A stretch of DNA of 31,992 bases, from the UHGV virus genome UHGV-0236108. One strand, given 5' to 3'. This stretch comes from a virus. The notes below the pieces were generated by a model that was not told where the DNA came from, ran no database searches, and saw only the letters and a program-made list of their open reading frames with translations. The position numbers and the translations under genes are program-made. Below, one piece after another: positions 2,989 to 27,930 of this stretch; the stretch's first letter is position 1, and each line of letters starts with the position of its first letter.

Positions 2989-3425
2989 TTTGCTGCTCCT
3001 CATCATATCGACCCTGCAAGGTCGGTTGGTTTCTCCACAAAACAGAGAAGAACACCTGCGGTGGCAGTCGCCCCGGTGGATTGGGTTATGAGCCCGTCGT
3101 CCGGTGATGCTCTTCTCTGTTTTGTAAAAAGAGCGGTACCAGCCGGAAGCAAGGGTACAAGCTGGTACCGCCAGGACTACACACAGCATAAAGTTGTGGT
3201 GCCGGGTGCCTCCCGGTGCCTGGCGAAGGTTGCACACCAGGCGGGTGGGTATCCACAGAAGGTCGACTGTCAGCCTCAACCTTAACCCGCGTGCGCTGAG
3301 CCGCATTCACCACAACGCTAAGGATTCTCTCAGGTTGAAAATACTTAGCTGTTATGTGCCTGTCTTTTCACCACTTCAGGCTCGGTGGTATCCTTTTAAG
3401 CCCGTATACATAAAAGGAAAATCAA

Positions 3426-6100: not shown

Positions 6101-7042
6101 ATGAGCACTAAATTAACCGGCTATGTATGGGATGGTTGCGCAGCGTCAGGCATGAAATTATCCAGCGTGGCAATTATGGCCCGCCTGGCTGATTTCAGTA
6201 ATGACGAAGGTGTGTGCTGGCCATCAATTGAAACCATTGCCCGTCAGATTGGCGCGGGGATGAGTACCGTCAGGACGGCTATCGCACGGCTGGAAGCAGA
6301 AGGCTGGTTAACGCGTAAGGCGCGTCGCCAGGGTAACCGCAATGCGTCGAATGTTTATCAGCTTAACGTTGCGAAGCTTCAGGCAGCGGCATTTTCTCAA
6401 CTGTCAGATTCTGACCCGTCAAAATCTGACGCATCAAAATCTGACCCGTCAAAATTTGATGCGTCGAAATCTGGCAAAAAAGCGGGTTTTCACCCGTCAG
6501 AATCTGGCGGGGATCCGTCAGTAAAATCAAAACATGATCCGTCATATAAAAAACCTTCTCGTCCGGACGCTTCGCAACCGGACACGCAGACGGATGAACA
6601 GGATTTTTTAACTCGCCATCCTGATGCGGTTGTATTCAGCCCTAAAAAGCGCCAGTGGGGAACGCAGGATGATTTGACCTGCGCACAGTGGCTCTGGAAA
6701 AAAATCATCGCCCTGTACGAGCAGGCCGCCGAATGTGACGGCGAGGTGGTTCGTCCCAAAGAACCGAACTGGACAGCCTGGGCAAACGAAATTCGCCTGA
6801 TGTGTGTGCAGGATGGTCGTACTCACAAACAAATCTGCGAGATGTACAGCCGCGTCAGCCGCGATCCGTTCTGGTGCCGTAACGTGCTCAGCCCGTCGAA
6901 GCTGCGGGAAAAATGGGATGAGCTTTCCCTGCGCTTATCGCCGTCCGTCAGCACGTACACAGAAAAACGCGAAGACCCGTACTTCAAAGCCAGTTACGAC
7001 AATGTGGACTACAGCCAGATCCCGGCAGGATTCAGGGGGTGA
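6101..7042 (+). CDS. replication initiation protein, lambda O-like (N-terminal winged-helix DNA-binding domain, iterons inside the gene)
   Basis: N-terminus with HTH-like segment (ETIARQIGAGMSTVRTAIARLEAEGWL); codons 100-150 are the in-frame read-out of the iteron array (SDSDPSKSDASKSDPSKFDASKSG). Confidence 0.75.
   Translation: MSTKLTGYVWDGCAASGMKLSSVAIMARLADFSNDEGVCWPSIETIARQIGAGMSTVRTAIARLEAEGWLTRKARRQGNRNASNVYQLNVAKLQAAAFSQLSDSDPSKSDASKSDPSKFDASKSGKKAGFHPSESGGDPSVKSKHDPSYKKPSRPDASQPDTQTDEQDFLTRHPDAVVFSPKKRQWGTQDDLTCAQWLWKKIIALYEQAAECDGEVVRPKEPNWTAWANEIRLMCVQDGRTHKQICEMYSRVSRDPFWCRNVLSPSKLREKWDELSLRLSPSVSTYTEKREDPYFKASYDNVDYSQIPAGFRG
6403..6555. repeat. origin-of-replication-like element: five tandem 15-bp iterons (6403-6477), degenerate copies, then an AT-rich stretch
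   Basis: GTCAGATTCTGACCC / GTCAAAATCTGACGC / ATCAAAATCTGACCC / GTCAAAATTTGATGC / GTCGAAATCTGGCAA head to tail, then CCGTCAGAATCTGGCGG and an A/T-rich tract (aaaatcaaaacatgatccgtcatataaaaaacc). Confidence 0.65.
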
Positions 7043-7044
7043 GC

Positions 7045-7536
7045 ATGAGTCTTTTGAATGACGTTCAGAAATTCATTGAAGCCCATCCGGGCTGTACTTC
7101 CGGAGACATTGCGGATGCTTTTGCAGGTTACTCACGGCAGCGCGTTCTGCAGTCAGCAAGCAAGTTACGTCAGAGTGGGCGTGTGGCTCACCGTTGTGAA
7201 GGAGATACACGCAGACATTTCTCGCGCCTGACTGAGAGAGCGCAGGAGCCGGAACCACAACCAGTTCGTGAAACCAGACCTGTGCGCAAGTTCTATGTCG
7301 GCACTAACGACCCCCGGGTGATTTTGTGCCTGACCCGCCAGGCTGAAGAACTGGAGTCGAGGGGCTTATACCGTCGTGCTGCAACGGTGTGGATGGCGGC
7401 ATTCCGTGAAAGCCACTCCCAGCCAGAACGAAACAATTTTCTGGCGCGTCGTGAGCGGTGCTTACGGAAAAGCAGCAAGCGGGCTGCATCAGGTGAAGAG
7501 TGGTATCTGTCAGGGAATTACGTGGGGGCTGAATGA
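7045..7536 (+). CDS. PerC-like regulatory protein (CPS-53 YfdN-like)
   Basis: C-terminal LESRGLYRRAATVWMAAF...RRERCL resembles the PerC-family signature; GGGGG Shine-Dalgarno before ATG 7045 (ORF-track GTG 7039). Confidence 0.5.
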   Translation: MSLLNDVQKFIEAHPGCTSGDIADAFAGYSRQRVLQSASKLRQSGRVAHRCEGDTRRHFSRLTERAQEPEPQPVRETRPVRKFYVGTNDPRVILCLTRQAEELESRGLYRRAATVWMAAFRESHSQPERNNFLARRERCLRKSSKRAASGEEWYLSGNYVGAE

Positions 7537-8186
7537 GTAATAAATATTGCCAGGCGCTGGTGGAACTGCGGAACAAACCAGCCCATGAACTGAAGGAAGT
7601 GGGCGATCAGTGGCGCACGCCGGACAACATTTTCTGGGGAATTAACACCCTGTTTGGTCCGTTTGTTCTGGATCTGTTCACTGACGGTGATAACGCCAAA
7701 TGTGCCGCGTATTACACGGCGGAAGACAACGCGCTGGCGCATGACTGGTCAGAACGCCTTGCGGAGCTTAAAGGTGCTGCCTTTGGTAATCCCCCATACA
7801 GCCGCGCCAGTCAGCATGAGGGGCAATACATCACCGGCATGCGTTACATCATGAAACATGCCAGTGCCATGCGTGATAAGGGCTGGCGCTATGTTTTCCT
7901 GATCAAAGCTGCCACCAGCGAAGTGTGGTGGCCGGAAGATGCGGACCATATTGCTTTTATTCGCGGGCGTATTGGTTTTGAACTGCCTGCCTGGTTTATC
8001 CCGAAGGACGAGAAGCAGGTGCCGACAGGAGCGTTCTTCGCTGGTGCTATTGCTGTTTTCGATAAGACCTGGAAGGGATCGGCAATCAGCTACATCGGGC
8101 GCGATGAACTTGAGGCATGTGGTGAGGCCTTTCTGGCGCAGGTTCGCCAGCAGGCAGAAAAACTGGTCAGGGAGATGGCGGCATGA
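7533..8186 (+). CDS. phage orphan DNA N6-adenine methyltransferase (Dam-type)
   Basis: Catalytic motif IV NPPY (FGNPPYS); ATGA start/stop overlap with upstream gene; no adjacent restriction endonuclease gene. Confidence 0.75.
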   Translation: MSNKYCQALVELRNKPAHELKEVGDQWRTPDNIFWGINTLFGPFVLDLFTDGDNAKCAAYYTAEDNALAHDWSERLAELKGAAFGNPPYSRASQHEGQYITGMRYIMKHASAMRDKGWRYVFLIKAATSEVWWPEDADHIAFIRGRIGFELPAWFIPKDEKQVPTGAFFAGAIAVFDKTWKGSAISYIGRDELEACGEAFLAQVRQQAEKLVREMAA

Positions 8187-10726: not shown

Positions 10727-11089
10727 ATGCGTGATATTCAGATGGTTCTGGATCGTTGGGGAGCATGGGCGGCGAGTGATAGTTCTGGAGTAGACTATTC
10801 TCCTATAGCTGCTGGGTTTAAAGGGCTTCTTCCCTATACAAGCAAAACACGTCAGGCTTGTTCAGATAGTGATGCATTAATTATTGAAGGTTGTCTTGCT
10901 CTTCTTAAGAAGAGAAAACCGTATGAGCACTCTCTGATTGTGGCTCATTACCTGTATGGCATCTCGAAAAGGAAGATAGCAAAAGCATACAAAAAAGATG
11001 AGAAATTGATACGTATAGAGATACAGTTGGCTGAAGGGTTTATAGATGGTTGTCTCTCGATGCTGGATATTCGTTTAGAAATGGAGTAA
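10727..11089 (+). CDS. late-gene antiterminator Q (QuuD-like)
   Basis: MRDIQMVLDRWGAWAA... matches the remembered QuuD N-terminus; GGAG 8 nt before ATG 10727 (ORF-track TTG 10712 probably not the start). Confidence 0.8.
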   Translation: MRDIQMVLDRWGAWAASDSSGVDYSPIAAGFKGLLPYTSKTRQACSDSDALIIEGCLALLKKRKPYEHSLIVAHYLYGISKRKIAKAYKKDEKLIRIEIQLAEGFIDGCLSMLDIRLEME

Positions 11090-11100
11090 TAAAATTAAGG

Positions 11101-11131
11101 CAGCAACATAGAGTTTAACTTTGTTGCTGCG
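11101..11131 (-). terminator. hairpin terminator for the reverse-strand HNH-motif gene
   Basis: GCAGCAACA...TGTTGCTGC 9-bp stem; on the minus strand followed by an A/T-rich run (CCTTAATTTTATTA). Confidence 0.4.
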
Positions 11132-11139
11132 TAACAGAT

Positions 11140-11886
11140 TTAATCTGGCATTATGGTAGATAATTGTGGGCTAGGTTTAACCCCGTAGGTTTCTGATATT
11201 CTTTTAACGTTGATACCTACGATTTTTCTGACAGCTCCCAACGAAAATTCTAACTCTTTAATCCCTGCGTCTTTAGAAGTGTTGTTCATATAATAACGGC
11301 ATGCTTCTCGAATTGACTTGCAAACGATAAATAGAGGTGATTCATCTGGGATTTGAGAAAGCAAAGAGGTCAAACATGTTCTTAACTCTTTGAGTGATTC
11401 GGCAACAAAACAGGGGTTTTCAAGATGATATTCTACGAACAAAGCCCCTTTATCATCCAATTCATTTATAATCTTTTTTGCCAGATTTCTTTCATCATGC
11501 TGTTGAATATATTTCAAAGCATCGAAGGTAATATTAATCGAACCTTCAAGACAGGAGCTTATAAGGCTTTCATGATCTTTTTTCCATTTTCTTAATACAG
11601 GTGCCGGATAGTCTAGCCCCTGATTCTTATCTATTAATACAGAACAAGTAGCACACAGCCATATGCCATTGTTAATTGACTTCCTTTCTGTTTCTGATTG
11701 TGACATGTCATAGCGTGGGCCATCAGGAGATGCTGCACATATGTGAGCAGCAACTCCTGTCTTGATTGATTTATTGCCATCAATTGATGGGCCAATGGTC
11801 AATCTAGGGCATGAAGGGTTTGAACAAATGAATGCTGCCCGCTCTGCTAATTTTTTTATAGTGTCTTTAGAAAAATTATGTCGCAT
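11140..11886 (-). CDS. AT-rich accessory protein with N-terminal HNH-type nuclease motif and an uncharacterised ~150-aa C-terminal domain
   Basis: C-x4-C ... H ... N ... C-x2-C spacing (FICSNPSCP ... VAAHICAASPDGPRY ... NNGIWLCATCS) typical of HNH beta-beta-alpha-metal folds; opposite strand to the flanking Q and lysis genes; low GC; own terminator. Confidence 0.6.
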   Translation of the reverse strand: MRHNFSKDTIKKLAERAAFICSNPSCPRLTIGPSIDGNKSIKTGVAAHICAASPDGPRYDMSQSETERKSINNGIWLCATCSVLIDKNQGLDYPAPVLRKWKKDHESLISSCLEGSINITFDALKYIQQHDERNLAKKIINELDDKGALFVEYHLENPCFVAESLKELRTCLTSLLSQIPDESPLFIVCKSIREACRYYMNNTSKDAGIKELEFSLGAVRKIVGINVKRISETYGVKPSPQLSTIMPD

Positions 11887-11979
11887 GTAGTGAACCCAAT
11901 ATATGAGAAAAATATTACTAACGCGGTCCGCATTTTATCATGTAATGTGTTAAGAGTGGTTACTTCGCCACACAGCTTA

Positions 11980-12009
11980 AACCCGCCGTCGAGCGGGTTT
12001 TGTCGTTTC
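11980..12009 (+). terminator. tR'-like rho-independent terminator downstream of the presumed Q-dependent late promoter
   Basis: AACCCGC-CGTCGA-GCGGGTT stem-loop followed by TTTGTCGTTT; located between the Q gene and the holin as in lambdoid late operons. Confidence 0.55.
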
Positions 12010-23806: not shown

Positions 23807-23955
23807 CGGCTGAATACCTCACTGATCGCTTCTTTGACTGCGCCAGCTACTGGCGCATTAATCCCTTCGAATTGCTGAATATGCCGATCAGTGAAATTCC
23901 CTTGCTGGTCAGTCAGGCAAACAGGATAGAGCAGGAGAAACGCACACATGGCTGA
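23773..23955 (+). CDS. tail assembly chaperone -1 frameshift extension (GT-like fusion product with 23537..23806)
   Basis: ORF in -1 frame overlapping the chaperone 3' end; slippery T TTT TTC at 23788-23794 in the zero frame. Confidence 0.55.
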   Translation: MACGWFFPPGLTAEYLTDRFFDCASYWRINPFELLNMPISEIPLLVSQANRIEQEKRTHG

Positions 23956-25789
23956 ATTTGAGCTTAAGGCGTTGATCACCGGTGTCGACAGGCTTTCTCC
24001 CGCGCTGTCGAAAATGCAAAAGAAAATCCGGGGATTTAAACGCCAGGCGGAAGAAGCGTCACAGGGTGGGCTGGCGCTTGGTGGCGGACTGGCTGCGGGT
24101 CTGACGCTTTCCCTGAAATCTTATGCCGATCAGGAAAACGCCGCCACCGGGCTGAAAGTTGCCATGATGGATGCGAACGGTGAGGTCGGAAAGAGCTTTC
24201 AGGACATCAATAAACTGGCTATTGGTCTGGGTAACCAGCTACCCGGTACAACGGCTGATTTCCAGAACATGATGCAGATGCTGGTGCGTCAGGGGATCCC
24301 GGCAGAAAACATTCTTGGCGGTGTGGGTAAAGCGACCGCTTATCTTGCGGTACAACTGAAAAAAACACCGGAAGCGGCTGCTGAGTTTGCTGCAAAGATG
24401 CAGGATGCTACCGGAACGGCGTCAGAAGACATGATGGGGCTGTTCGACACTATCCAGAAGGCGTTTTATCTGGGCGTTGACGATACCAACATGTTGTCCT
24501 TCTTCACTAAAACCAGTTCTGTTCTGAAGATGGTGAACAAGGACGGTCTTCAGGCTGCACAGAGCCTTGCCCCCATCAGCGTCATGATGGATCAGATGGG
24601 GATGAACGGAGAGTCGGCAGGTAATGCCCTGCGAAAAGTTATCCAGTCCGGATTAAGCGTTAAGAAAATCAGGGACGTCAATAAAGTCATGGCCCGCCAG
24701 AAACTCGGGGTACAGCTCGATTTTACTGACGGCAAAGGAAGTTTTGGCGGTCTTGATAACATGTTCAGGCAACTGGCAAAGCTGCGAAAACTGACCGACG
24801 TTAAACGAACTGGTGTACTTAAGGCAATATTTGGTGATGATGCCGAAACCCTTCAGGTGGTCAATGCACTAATCGATAAAGGAAAGGATGGCTACGATCA
24901 GATCCAGCAGAAGATGAATAAACAGGCCAGCCTGAATAAACGTGTTCAGGCACAGCTTGGTACGCTGTCCAACCTGTGGGAGGCAATGACAGGGACCGCA
25001 ACTAACGGCCTTGCGGCTATTGGCGGTACATTTTCTGGTGACGCCAAAAATATCACGCAATGGCTGGGGGAGTTGGGGGAGAAATTCACGAAGTTTGCGG
25101 ATGAAAATCCCCGGGTTATTCGCGGCGTCGTCGGGCTTGCTGCCGGTCTTGCGATTCTGAAACTGGGATTGATGGGCGTTGGCGGTGCCATCAGTATTGT
25201 CAGCAGGATCATGTCGATGACGCCGATTGGCATGATTACGACGGCGATAGCCATGGCTGCGGGATTAATTATCACTAACTGGGATGTTGTCGGACCTTAT
25301 TTTAAGAAACTCTGGGAAACCATTGGTCCTTATTTTGAGGCTGGCTGGGAACTTCTGAAGAAAGTTTTTGCCTGGTCGCCGCTGGGGATGGTCATCAATA
25401 ACTGGGGACCGGTTGTTAAGTGGTTTCAGGATATGTGGGACAAGCTGAAGCCAATTATTGAGTGGTTTACCGACAGTTCCGGTGACACGGTCGATGCCAT
25501 TAACTCGGCGCAGTGGGGCGCGGGTGCTTATGATGCTTATGGGACGGGAATACCGGCGCGGGGATACACACCTTATCCGGCGGTGGATCCGGCTCAGTCA
25601 AACAACGCCTCTAATGCCACAGGCCCGAATCCCTTCATGATTAACAAAGCTTCTGCGGCAAAAGTTGATGGTGAGATCAAGGTATCTTTTGTGAATTCGC
25701 CTCCGGGTATGCGGGTTATGGAAACGCGATCCAGCGGTATCGACGTGAATCACGACGTTGGCTACACCCGATTTGGTATGGGGGGCTGA
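23948..25789 (+). CDS. tail tape measure protein
   Basis: 613 aa; Gly/Ala-rich hydrophobic stretches and coiled-coil regions; position after the chaperone pair. Confidence 0.85.
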   Translation: MAEFELKALITGVDRLSPALSKMQKKIRGFKRQAEEASQGGLALGGGLAAGLTLSLKSYADQENAATGLKVAMMDANGEVGKSFQDINKLAIGLGNQLPGTTADFQNMMQMLVRQGIPAENILGGVGKATAYLAVQLKKTPEAAAEFAAKMQDATGTASEDMMGLFDTIQKAFYLGVDDTNMLSFFTKTSSVLKMVNKDGLQAAQSLAPISVMMDQMGMNGESAGNALRKVIQSGLSVKKIRDVNKVMARQKLGVQLDFTDGKGSFGGLDNMFRQLAKLRKLTDVKRTGVLKAIFGDDAETLQVVNALIDKGKDGYDQIQQKMNKQASLNKRVQAQLGTLSNLWEAMTGTATNGLAAIGGTFSGDAKNITQWLGELGEKFTKFADENPRVIRGVVGLAAGLAILKLGLMGVGGAISIVSRIMSMTPIGMITTAIAMAAGLIITNWDVVGPYFKKLWETIGPYFEAGWELLKKVFAWSPLGMVINNWGPVVKWFQDMWDKLKPIIEWFTDSSGDTVDAINSAQWGAGAYDAYGTGIPARGYTPYPAVDPAQSNNASNATGPNPFMINKASAAKVDGEIKVSFVNSPPGMRVMETRSSGIDVNHDVGYTRFGMGG

Positions 25790-25791
25790 TA

Positions 25792-25820
25792 CCCCGCTTA
25801 AACACGGGTTTTGTTGTTTA
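25792..25820 (+). terminator. weak hairpin plus T-tract after tape measure gene
   Basis: CCCCG...CGGG short stem followed by TTTTGTTGTTT. Confidence 0.35.
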
Positions 25821-25870
25821 GCAGGTTCTTGGTAGGATTAGTCCGATACTTTAATGATGGGAATAGGGAT

Positions 25871-26548
25871 ATGAAAGTCTTAACAATTTATTCAGTTGTC
25901 GGCATGGCTCTTTTACTCGGGGGATGTACCTCTCCGAAGTACAATTATTTACCAAAAACAGAAAATTATAGTGAACCTCCTGTAGGAAGCATTAATACAG
26001 CTTATGTCGGTGATTCAATGATTAAGCAGGGGGTGTCACAGAGGTTTGAAGGTCTGAAGGTTAATGCTCCTGCGAGAATTTCCTGGGCGTATACGATCAC
26101 TCCGGGGATGCTGAAAAAGGTTGGTGAGGATAACAAGGCTGATTATTACTTTCTCACAAACGGTGCTGATTCAGCCAATGTGGAAAAGGCAGCCCTTGCC
26201 GATATGTGGCAGGGTATCATGGTAGAAAAGAAAAAGAATGCCTTATGTGTAATAACAGTTTTCGGTGTTACCAACTGTGAAACTAACATGCCTATCGAAA
26301 AGGTTACTCTGAATATCAGTGGTGATTCATCTTTCCAGCAAGCTCTGCTTTACAACGGAAGGGTCGGAAACAAAATCAACATTGGATATCGTGAATTTTC
26401 ATCGAATACAGCACGCCCGGCCTTCAACAACGATGTTGAGTATGATCTCGCGGAGTCTAAAACAATTGGCTATAAAGGGGCTAAATTCGAAGTACTTGAT
26501 GCGAGTAACCAAAGCATAAGGTATCGGGTAATAAGTAACTTTAGATAA
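25871..26548 (+). CDS. AT-rich lipoprotein inserted in the tail module (225 aa)
   Basis: Signal peptide MKVLTIYSVVGMALLLGGC with lipobox LLGGC; noticeably lower GC than flanking tail genes; bracketed by hairpins at 25792-25820 and 26563-26588. Confidence 0.65.
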   Translation: MKVLTIYSVVGMALLLGGCTSPKYNYLPKTENYSEPPVGSINTAYVGDSMIKQGVSQRFEGLKVNAPARISWAYTITPGMLKKVGEDNKADYYFLTNGADSANVEKAALADMWQGIMVEKKKNALCVITVFGVTNCETNMPIEKVTLNISGDSSFQQALLYNGRVGNKINIGYREFSSNTARPAFNNDVEYDLAESKTIGYKGAKFEVLDASNQSIRYRVISNFR

Positions 26549-26562
26549 GCGATAATTTAATG

Positions 26563-26588
26563 AAACCCGCTTCGGCGGGTTTTTTTAT
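26563..26588 (+). terminator. rho-independent terminator after the lipoprotein gene
   Basis: AAACCCGC-TTCG-GCGGGTTT stem-loop followed by TTTTTAT. Confidence 0.7.
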
Positions 26589-26601
26589 ATCCGGAGTTTA
26601 T

Positions 26602-27930
26602 ATGACGTGGAAAGACAGACTTCAGGACGCGTCATTTCGCGGCGTGCCGTTTAAGGTTGAAGAAGAAAGTGCGGGAACCGGTCGCCGTGTGGAAACACAC
26701 GAATACCCGAACCGCGACAAGCCCTATACCGAAGATCTGGGAAAAGTCACTTTCCGCCCGTCCATCACAGCTTATGTGGTGGGAGATGACTGCTTTGACC
26801 AGCGCGATCGCCTGATTGAAGCGCTGAATAAACCAGGTCCCGGCACGCTTGTCCACCCGACTTACGGTGAGCTGAAAGTCTGTGTTGACGGGGAAGTTAG
26901 GGTCAGCACATCGAAAAGTGAAGGGCGTATTGTCCGCTTTGACCTGAAGTTTATCGAAGCAGGAAAACTCTCTTACCCCACATCAGGTGCAGCGACGGCG
27001 CAGACGCTGATGTCATCCTGTTCTGCACTGGATGACTGCATCAGTGACAGCTTCAGCGGTTTCAGTATCGATGGTGTGGCGGATTTCGTGCAGAACGACG
27101 TTATCGGTAATGCCAGCATAATGCTGGGGTATGTTTCTGATGCGATGAAAGTGGTGGATTCTGCCGTATCGGATGCCGCCAGGCTGTTGCAGGGGGATAT
27201 CTCGGTACTTCTGCCGCCGCCATCGTCAGGCAAAAATTTCGTTGAGCAGGTGCAGAAAATGTGGCGTACCGGCAAACGCCTTTATGGTAACGCCAGCGAC
27301 CTGGTCACCATGATCAAAACGCTTTCCGGTGTCAGCCTCGGCAGCGATTTGCAACCGCGCGGCGTCTGGAAAACGGACAGTAAAACCACCGCCACGGCGA
27401 CGCAGCAGCGTAACGTGGTTGCCAGCACCCTTCGTACGACCGCAATCAGCGAAGCGGCGTATGCCGTCACCCGATTGCCTGCGCCAACAACTTCCGCGGT
27501 GATGCAGAATTCCGCAGTGGGGCAGGCAACAACACCCGCGCAGAGCACCGGCTGGCCTTCCGTCACGCATCCGGCACTGAACAATGCACCGGCGGTGAAA
27601 AACACGGTTGACCTGCCGACGTGGGAAGAACTGACTGACATTCGCGACATACTGAATACGGCAATTGATAAGGAGTTGTCCCGTACAACCAGTGATGCGC
27701 TGTTTCTGGCGCTGCGCCGGGTGAAAGCAGATCTGAATGCGGATATCAACACGCGCCTTGAACAGTCTGCACGGATCATTCAGCGCACACCGGATGAGGT
27801 TTTACCCGCGCTGGTGCTGGCGGCGACCTGGTTTGATAACGCGGCGCGTGACGCGGACATTATCCGGCGTAATGCCATTACGCATCCCGGCTTTGTGCCG
27901 GTGATCCCTCTGAAGGTGCCAGTGCAATGA
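26602..27930 (+). CDS. DNA circulation protein (Mu N-like)
   Basis: GGAG 6 nt before ATG 26602 (ORF-track start 26560 lies inside the terminator); first gene after tape measure and lipoprotein insert. Confidence 0.75.
   Translation: MTWKDRLQDASFRGVPFKVEEESAGTGRRVETHEYPNRDKPYTEDLGKVTFRPSITAYVVGDDCFDQRDRLIEALNKPGPGTLVHPTYGELKVCVDGEVRVSTSKSEGRIVRFDLKFIEAGKLSYPTSGAATAQTLMSSCSALDDCISDSFSGFSIDGVADFVQNDVIGNASIMLGYVSDAMKVVDSAVSDAARLLQGDISVLLPPPSSGKNFVEQVQKMWRTGKRLYGNASDLVTMIKTLSGVSLGSDLQPRGVWKTDSKTTATATQQRNVVASTLRTTAISEAAYAVTRLPAPTTSAVMQNSAVGQATTPAQSTGWPSVTHPALNNAPAVKNTVDLPTWEELTDIRDILNTAIDKELSRTTSDALFLALRRVKADLNADINTRLEQSARIIQRTPDEVLPALVLAATWFDNAARDADIIRRNAITHPGFVPVIPLKVPVQ

Follow-up and report, generated by a model that had tools for sequence, protein, structure and literature searches.

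The DNA analyzed here (the window; 31,992 nt, UHGV virus genome UHGV-0236108) carries an SfV/SfII/SfI-like prophage that combines a lambdoid-style repressor region with a contractile tail module of the Mu type. Within the tail module, a lipoprotein gene lies between the genes for the tape measure and DNA-circularization proteins, a location already proposed in an earlier note on this DNA and confirmed by the Pfam matches of both neighbors. The features of the locus, in order of position, are as follows.

23948–25789, + strand: gene for the tail tape measure protein (613 aa), forming the left border of the slot; PF10145, E = 9.9e-27, and PHROG tape measure families
25790–26556, + strand: inserted cargo module, adding ~760 bp to the site that is empty in SfII, SfV, and SfI; from junction alignments (span of 1399 vs. 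641 bp) and a dip in GC to 0.40–0.44
25792–25815, + strand: weak 4-bp hairpin after the tape measure gene, unsupported as a terminator (z = −0.26 vs. shuffles)
25811–25816, + strand: −35-like hexamer TTGTTG, 16 nt 5′ of the −10 element; read from the sequence
25830–25838, + strand: extended −10 element TGgTAGGAT of a candidate sigma-70 promoter, conserved across the backbones of relatives and occurring once in the window
25859–25863, + strand: likely ribosome-binding site GGGAA, 7 nt 5′ of the ATG; read from the sequence
25871–26548, + strand: lipoprotein gene (225-aa precursor, ~207 aa mature); from the ORF, a PHROG 1353 match, and the lipobox
26562–26593, + strand: strong intrinsic terminator closing the slot (stem-loop at 26562–26583 plus T-run); from the terminator scan, z = −2.9
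26602–27930, + strand: DNA-circularization/baseplate hub gene of the Mu gp43/N type (442 aa), forming the right border of the slot; PF07157 (DNA_circ_N), E = 5e-34, and phrog_184

The lipoprotein ORF opens with an ATG at 25871 and ends with a stop codon at 26546–26548. The start of the DNA-circularization gene at 26602 has GGAG in front of it and is kept in SfII and in phage SKA5; the longer ORF, with its start at 26560, would open inside the terminator.

A cargo slot in the tail module

Both flanks of the lipoprotein gene matched those of SfII, SfI, SfV, and vB_EcoM-689R6 at 93–94% identity (~94% to SfII, SfI, and SfV for the last ~290 nt of the tape measure gene), and none of these phages carried the gene itself. 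Because the junction spans 641 bp in all four phages vs. 1399 bp in the window, the lipoprotein gene represents an insertion of ~760 bp. Homology with the empty sites ended at the tape measure stop codon and restarted at ~26557, just 5′ of the terminator. The base composition of the gene was deviant, as had been claimed earlier, with a GC content of 0.414 vs. 0.518 for the window and 0.51–0.60 for the flanking tail genes.

Among 5426 complete Escherichia coli genomes surveyed, 1094 matched at least part of the junction query, some of them only at its DNA-circularization end. The lipoprotein gene was present at this junction in 47 genomes and anywhere in 55 of the 5426, in the form of two alleles (≥99% and 90–95% identity). 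Slot content was read from 40 evenly ranked rows of the score-ordered junction matches: 17 were empty, two held the lipoprotein gene, nine a 170-aa signal-peptide protein (as in phage SKA5), two a bPH_1 protein, two an OB-fold protein, and one a 176-aa protein, with the remaining seven being partial matches. Besides the lipoprotein gene, the slot holds at least four other unrelated cargos, all with GC contents of 0.31–0.38, and three of these four carry an N-terminal signal peptide or transmembrane segment, as read from their sequences. The OB-fold cargo, a minus-strand, tRNA_anti-like gene, matched phrog_8545, annotated as “superinfection exclusion Sie-like” (E = 1.5e-49). The lipoprotein gene has the attributes of a moron, i.e., extra DNA of deviating base composition between otherwise adjacent genes and absent from close relatives. 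The earlier reading of the locus as an inserted accessory gene is strongly supported by its absence from SfII, SfI, and SfV and by the interchangeable cargos of the slot, and we conclude that the gene is very probably a moron, having arrived by horizontal transfer as a single-gene cassette in a slot whose cargo can be swapped.

The 5′ regions of several relatives (the two E. coli alleles, Pseudocitrobacter, Citrobacter pasteurii, Erwinia, and Klebsiella-type phages) were aligned, and all shared a common block that ended in the ribosome-binding site and ATG, with the ribosome-binding region GGGAATAGGGATATG kept in relatives. Of 43 distinct upstream sequences, 17 had TAGGAT at a near-fixed spacing of ~33–38 nt 5′ of the ATG, and these 17 all belonged to the Enterobacterales clade; 16 of them, across different phage backbones, also had TG two bases 5′ of TAGGAT. 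By eye, TTGnnn could be seen ~15–16 nt 5′ of the −10 element in several backbones, with divergent spacers. The candidate promoter fell under the threshold of a consensus scan, with matches at only 7 of the 12 hexamer positions; promoters of the extended −10 type can work with a weak −35 element. We describe it as a candidate promoter only, in the form of a conserved promoter-like element that appears to travel with the lipoprotein gene.

The hairpin that had been noted directly after the tape measure gene proved no better than chance: 71 of 200 shuffles folded as well as the sequence at 25792–25815, two of the four stem pairs were lost in the second E. coli allele, and the terminator scan called no terminator there. 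Given that there is no real terminator between the tape measure and lipoprotein genes, the late transcript should also include the latter. The strong terminator claimed before the next tail gene is real (9 stem pairs, −16.3 kcal/mol), but it is not specific to the insert. Because this hairpin is also found in SfII, whose site is empty, and lies equally far from the DNA-circularization start there, the terminator is a feature of the phage backbone; the SfII record annotates a terminator, and the two stems differ by compensatory changes (CCCAC/GTGGG in the window against CCCGC/GCGGG in SfII). With respect to the moron layout of own promoter plus terminator, the conserved TGnTAGGAT is present, and a strong terminator is present but backbone-derived. 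Together, the candidate promoter and the backbone terminator would give a classical moron layout.

The lipoprotein and PHROG 1353

The N-terminus of the product reads MKVLTIYSVVGMALLLGG followed by C, in which residues 1–18 form a signal peptide made up of MK (one basic residue), a 14-residue hydrophobic core, and the lipobox LLGG in front of the cysteine. The 225-aa protein thus conforms at its N-terminus to the pattern [LVI][ASTVIG][GAS]C. The codon of Cys19 occupies 25925–25927, with Thr at +2 and Ser at +3. The lipobox pattern, with its cysteine, was found in 108 of 120 homologues, which bears out the earlier description of a 225-aa lipoprotein with a signal peptide and an LLGGC lipobox. 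The +2 residue was A or T in 102 of these 108 and Asp in none; several of the 12 homologues outside the pattern had a Cys after a hydrophobic stretch, and two looked N-terminally truncated. The lipobox and the +2 Thr, in place of Asp, point to lipid modification and sorting to the outer membrane.

The earlier note had been unable to place the protein in a family, but it matches PHROG 1353 over its full length (E = 1.5e-98, residues 1–225 of 225) and belongs to this family, which has no assigned function in PHROGs. Only four families were returned by the PHROG scan (E ≤ 1), all annotated as function unknown. No family was returned from Pfam-A (hmmscan, E ≤ 1) or PADLOC, and no match was found in NCBIfam or among PDB sequences. 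The AlphaFold2 model of the protein was all-beta with a pLDDT of 92.7, and Foldseek comparison of this model with the PDB and BFVD gave no match at E ≤ 1e-3. PHROG 1353 is thus a family that has already been catalogued, but without a characterized function, Pfam entry, solved structure, or recognizably similar structure.

A word-indexed search recovered 1067 relatives, and an exhaustive profile search recovered 3096 representatives of 50%-identity clusters at E ≤ 1e-3, which were mostly single-domain proteins of ~225 aa and uniformly stand-alone. The best 80 genome loci, with 40–50% identity to the query, all came from diderm phyla: alpha-, beta-, gamma-, and delta-proteobacteria, Nitrospirota, Planctomycetes, Gemmatimonadetes, Omnitrophica, and Verrucomicrobia. 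The family conserves the motif C-[AT]-[ST]-P-K-Y-N-Y from the lipobox Cys onward, the motifs GYREF and ARPAFNNDVEY in the C-terminal half, and many invariant polar residues (Y, R, E, N, Q, K, D); two further invariant cysteines probably form a disulfide. The mature part had dN/dS values of 0.02–0.10, indicating strong purifying selection. PHROG 1353 is a widespread bacterial lipoprotein family that has been repeatedly captured by mobile elements, phages especially.

Genomic contexts and possible roles

No conserved neighbor or operon was found across 79 genome loci. A verified tape measure gene lay within three genes of the relative in 59 of 159 genome and viral loci, and this adjacency was concentrated in 7 of 61 clades at 70% identity. 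The relative was located 5′ of the tape measure gene in siphoviruses of the Klebsiella, Citrobacter, Erwinia, Acinetobacter, and Psychrobacter types, and 3′ of it in SfV-like phages as well as in a prophage of Providencia whose tape measure protein is HK97-like. Tape measure flanks also carried Arc/Mnt repressors, antirepressors, HicAB-like (toxin-antitoxin) and DUF4258/HTH pairs, and an AriA/PtuA/GajA-like ATPase. Such mixed cargo marks these flanks as general moron hotspots, and the adjacency of PHROG 1353 members to tape measure genes may reflect merely a permissive hotspot of this kind.

Several further contexts were rich in defense genes; those read in detail are not a random choice of loci. 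P2-like phages (Fels-2, RE2010, and many Klebsiella phages) carried 27%-identical, lipobox-bearing members in the gpA-gpQ hotspot, which in P2 holds old and tin and is a documented defense hotspot (PMC9122126). The Fels-2 member, itself with a lipobox, neighbored AbiU (E = 2.7e-112), and that of Klebsiella phage 4LV2017 neighbored an annotated reverse transcriptase gene. In a Geobacter integrase island, the relative adjoined the integrase, and the island also encoded PRTase-CE and RVT_1 proteins. An ICE with TraC, TraU, and TraG carried the relative followed by Shedu SduA, and a Vibrio parahaemolyticus cassette array contained it as a single-gene cassette between two of 23 attC-like repeats. 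A P4-type integrase was found within 8 kb at eight genome loci. The remaining loci without a tape measure neighbor were mostly adjoined by housekeeping genes, representing lone chromosomal copies, many of them in environmental diderms. PADLOC models matched only a handful of 150 immediate neighbors, and guilt by association with defense outside phages is modest.

We propose that the cassette brings ~60 bp of its own 5′ region (TTGTTG, 16 nt, TGgTAGGAT, and the ribosome-binding site) and borrows the backbone terminator that already closes the slot, an arrangement in which the gene could be transcribed while the prophage is repressed, and the tail genes 3′ of it would be spared read-through. The lipoprotein would be expressed in the lysogen, and additionally with the late transcript. 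It would be exported, lipidated at Cys19, and, since the +2 residue is Thr and not Asp (the Lol sorting rule), delivered to the outer membrane on its periplasm-facing side; both expression in the lysogen and outer-membrane location are predictions from these sequence features. On arrival, the protein would form a compact all-beta domain with a probable disulfide. There it could protect the carrier cell at the envelope level against incoming phage. By analogy with HK97 gp15 and Ltp, the step disturbed would be a periplasmic one, namely penetration mediated by the tail tip or tape measure protein and the entry of DNA.

We put forward this exclusion or defense role tentatively, as the likeliest of the functions considered for the lipoprotein. 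It is made plausible by the slot that the gene shares with a “Sie-like” cargo, indirectly by the conservation of the promoter-like element, by the recurrence of relatives at tape measure genes and in defense hotspots, and by the gp15 and Ltp precedents. The main arguments against it are the very high conservation of the family across phyla and the many lone chromosomal copies without defense neighbors. This conservation is unlike that of typical exclusion proteins, which are fast-evolving and narrow, and would fit a conserved, housekeeping-like envelope target or ligand. A broader version, which we regard as rather unlikely, is that PHROG 1353 constitutes an unrecognized and very widespread single-gene envelope defense of diderms, in which a periplasmic protein of a new all-beta fold, anchored in the outer membrane, blocks periplasmic genome delivery (tail-tip/tape-measure channel formation or cell-wall crossing). 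The target would then be a conserved envelope feature and not a phage-specific sequence, and action on such a feature would explain both the cross-phylum conservation and the spread of the family through phage slots, the P2 hotspot, ICEs, and integron cassettes.

Strong purifying selection and polar invariant residues also suggest a conserved ligand or partner. The protein could instead be a host-fitness lipoprotein unrelated to phage, a general envelope factor that mobile elements carry because the carrier cell benefits. It might help the cell to tolerate stress or maintain its envelope, bind a ligand or polysaccharide, or confer resistance to external killing in the manner of Bor and TraT. 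The many lone chromosomal members amid housekeeping genes in environmental diderms, and the few defense-model matches among immediate neighbors, are consistent with such a role. However, a gene with a core envelope function would usually keep a conserved neighbor or operon, and none was seen in the 79 genome loci; the gene is also patchily distributed, being present in 55 of 5426 E. coli genomes. Family members recur in phage, ICE, and integron cargo slots beside defense genes, and serum resistance cannot explain the Planctomycetes, Nitrospirota, and marine members. We judge this explanation to be on the unlikely side.

Orphan immunity genes accumulate on mobile elements and in integron cassettes, where PHROG 1353 members also occur as single-gene cargo. 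The lipoprotein, predicted to face the periplasm and to contain a probable disulfide, could accordingly provide immunity against a toxin that acts in the periplasm, whether a type VI effector, a bacteriocin, or a contact-dependent toxin, and be carried without the toxin gene. We consider this quite improbable, as no toxin-like neighbor recurred in any of the 159 loci and the family members are uniformly stand-alone.

A similarly small probability attaches to a lytic-cycle helper made mainly with the late tail transcript, which would either mask receptors against the loss of progeny on debris (as T5 Llp does) or aid lysis. Late read-through is expected in the absence of a functional terminator after the tape measure gene, and the gene lies inside the tail modules of many phages. 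A purely late gene would nevertheless have no need of its own conserved candidate promoter, many copies lie outside phages, and the gene is not part of a lysis cassette; receptor masking of this kind would, moreover, overlap with superinfection exclusion and be compatible with it.

That the gene is a conserved structural or assembly component of the tail, the finding in homologous tail modules that the earlier note had named as contrary to its own reading, is effectively refuted despite the tape measure gene within three genes at 59 of 159 loci: the gene is not a conserved component because it is absent from the closest phages (SfII, SfI, and SfV) and most sampled E. coli junctions were empty of it, its position varies (on either side of the tape measure gene in some phages, in the P2 hotspot in others), non-phage copies exist, and a signal peptide and lipobox mark the product as an exported lipoprotein, directed out of the cytoplasm, where tails assemble.

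Prophages are known to protect or equip the host cell by way of morons that encode envelope proteins, so that neither the kind of gene nor its architecture, which is ordinary, is new. The present moron, however, comes from a large (~3,100 50%-identity clusters), strongly conserved, and mobile family with an unmatched fold, which makes it a worthwhile candidate. If the protein blocks phage entry, it would represent a broadly distributed single-gene defense at the envelope level, in a field dominated by cytoplasmic nucleic-acid-sensing systems, and would offer a handle on the poorly understood periplasmic stage of tape-measure genome delivery. Whatever the function of the lipoprotein, the tape measure/DNA-circularization junction of SfV-like prophages is a compact slot with at least five alternative cargos that could be mined for further exclusion genes.

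Comparison with known systems

HK97 gp15 is the product of a moron that adjoins the tape measure gene, and it stops genome entry in a manner that depends on the tail (Cumby et al., 2012; PMC3594210). Its gene, like the one described here, is a low-GC single-gene moron that immediately neighbors the tape measure gene within the tail operon, with an envelope-bound product and bacterial homologues outside prophages. By its published description, gp15 is set apart as a small inner-membrane protein of the YebO family (PMC3594210), as opposed to a 207-aa lipoprotein. Exclusion by gp15 has been demonstrated, whereas the exclusion role of the PHROG 1353 member is hypothetical.

Ltp, from Streptococcus thermophilus phage TP-J34, is likewise a prophage-encoded lipoprotein exposed outside the cytoplasmic membrane. 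Through its binding to the incoming tape measure protein, Ltp prevents the injection of DNA (PMC3952083; Bebeacua et al., 2013). Its description, with repeat domains that contain helices (PMC3952083), sets it apart from the all-beta model predicted here. The two also differ in that the host of TP-J34 is Gram-positive. The ltp gene belongs to the lysogeny module and is not known to adjoin the tape measure gene.

Lambda Bor/Iss and plasmid TraT are mobile-element outer-membrane lipoproteins with roles in serum resistance and surface exclusion that, as proposed here, are expressed from the resident element, and TraT is of similar size. The Pfam models for Bor and TraT gave no match to the lipoprotein (Pfam-A, E ≤ 1), and many PHROG 1353 members, in contrast to these proteins, occur in non-host-associated bacteria.

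Cor (phi80/N15/HK022) and Llp (T5) are outer-membrane lipoproteins that block the FhuA receptor and are encoded in or near tail or receptor-binding regions. As phage-encoded outer-membrane lipoproteins that exclude phages at the envelope, they resemble the PHROG 1353 member, for which exclusion is a hypothesis. They are much smaller and concern one enterobacterial receptor, whereas the PHROG 1353 family spans phyla without that receptor. No similarity to Cor/Llp or other named superinfection-exclusion families was found in the PHROG scan (E ≤ 1) or with PADLOC; Cor is mentioned in PMC3594210 as well. The likeness to Cor, Llp, and Bor that the earlier note had drawn is thus an analogy, as neither sequence nor fold comparison revealed a relation to these proteins. 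With PHROG 1353 itself no difference was apparent, and the likeness comprises a full-length match, a length of ~225 aa, shared motifs, and two conserved cysteines.

The cargo slot and its terminator

In SfV-like prophages the junction between the tape measure and DNA-circularisation genes is polymorphic for cargo, and the backbone terminator closes the slot. In other E. coli prophages, where the slot cargo lies at L002 3363-3875, L092 1837-2214, L093 1814-2260 (minus strand) and L094 1873-2403 (each in the record's own coordinates), the alternatives to the lipoprotein gene encode:

protein of 170 aa whose N-terminus resembles a signal peptide (phrog_8976)
bPH_1 protein
OB-fold protein whose N-terminal segment is hydrophobic, matching the "Sie-like" phrog_8545
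protein of 176 aa, likewise hydrophobic in its N-terminal segment (phrog_5485)

Read as its longest ORF, the version annotated in the SfII record, the DNA-circularisation gene would encode 456 aa and begin within the terminator hairpin; the extra 5' stretch is window 26560-26601 (3297-3335 in the compared record L001). The conserved start is the ATG at 26602, preceded by a GGAG ribosome-binding site and giving 442 aa, in agreement with the RefSeq and SKA5 annotations. With an intrinsic terminator of this strength partway through the tail operon, late transcripts would have to be made by termination-resistant transcription.

A near-perfect palindrome after the candidate -10 element

The block that follows the candidate -10 element of the lipoprotein gene (window 25833-25846, GGATTAGTCC) is conserved among relatives in alignment A6, which takes in their upstream regions; the C. 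pasteurii version reads GGATTAATCC. The block forms a near-perfect 10-bp palindrome and, judged from its sequence, could be a candidate operator for some regulator in addition to being promoter sequence.

Neighbourhoods of lipoprotein homologues

The Fels-2 homologue, STM2726, is adjoined in the gpA-gpQ hotspot by STM2723.1 (L003 5946-7643), a 565-aa "hypothetical protein" that is an AbiU homologue (PADLOC E = 2.7e-112). A Vibrio parahaemolyticus contig (L099 1-15880) is an array of cassettes separated by a repeat (~60-126 nt, attC-like in appearance) that occurs 23 times at a spacing of 476-1443 bp; the lipoprotein gene (7200-7880) forms a cassette by itself, flanked by repeats at 6984-7109 and 7884-7981, and another cassette carries a KAP NTPase gene. 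The Providencia sp. R33 prophage (L182 1386-11287) has accessory genes on both sides of an HK97-like tape measure gene, and the region is a dense moron cluster within the tail operon:

5' of the tape measure gene: AriA/PtuA/GajA-like ATPase and Dam methylase
3' of the tape measure gene: lipoprotein gene, HicAB-like pair, Arc/Mnt and ORF6N antirepressor

Other accessory genes in the window

Two further low-GC regions of the window were considered:

1-1635: low-GC stretch (GC 0.33) with ORFs at 121-999 and 1087-1635, both minus strand
11143-11886, minus strand: 248-aa ORF (GC ~0.38) within the low-GC island 10801-12000

The first, at the prophage edge, is probably another accessory region. One of its products, 293 aa long, belongs to phrog_12528 (unknown function) and has a weak Csx27-like match (E = 1.4e-5); the adjoining gene encodes a dNMP-phosphatase-like HD protein (phrog_318). 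From sequence similarity, the 248-aa ORF appears to be a second defence moron, of the nuclease type, in the prophage that carries the lipoprotein gene: it matched PDC-M68A, a candidate defence model in PADLOC (E = 7.5e-27), and over its N-terminal ~115 residues it is similar to CBASS/SAVED-HNH endonuclease effectors and to Shedu SduA.
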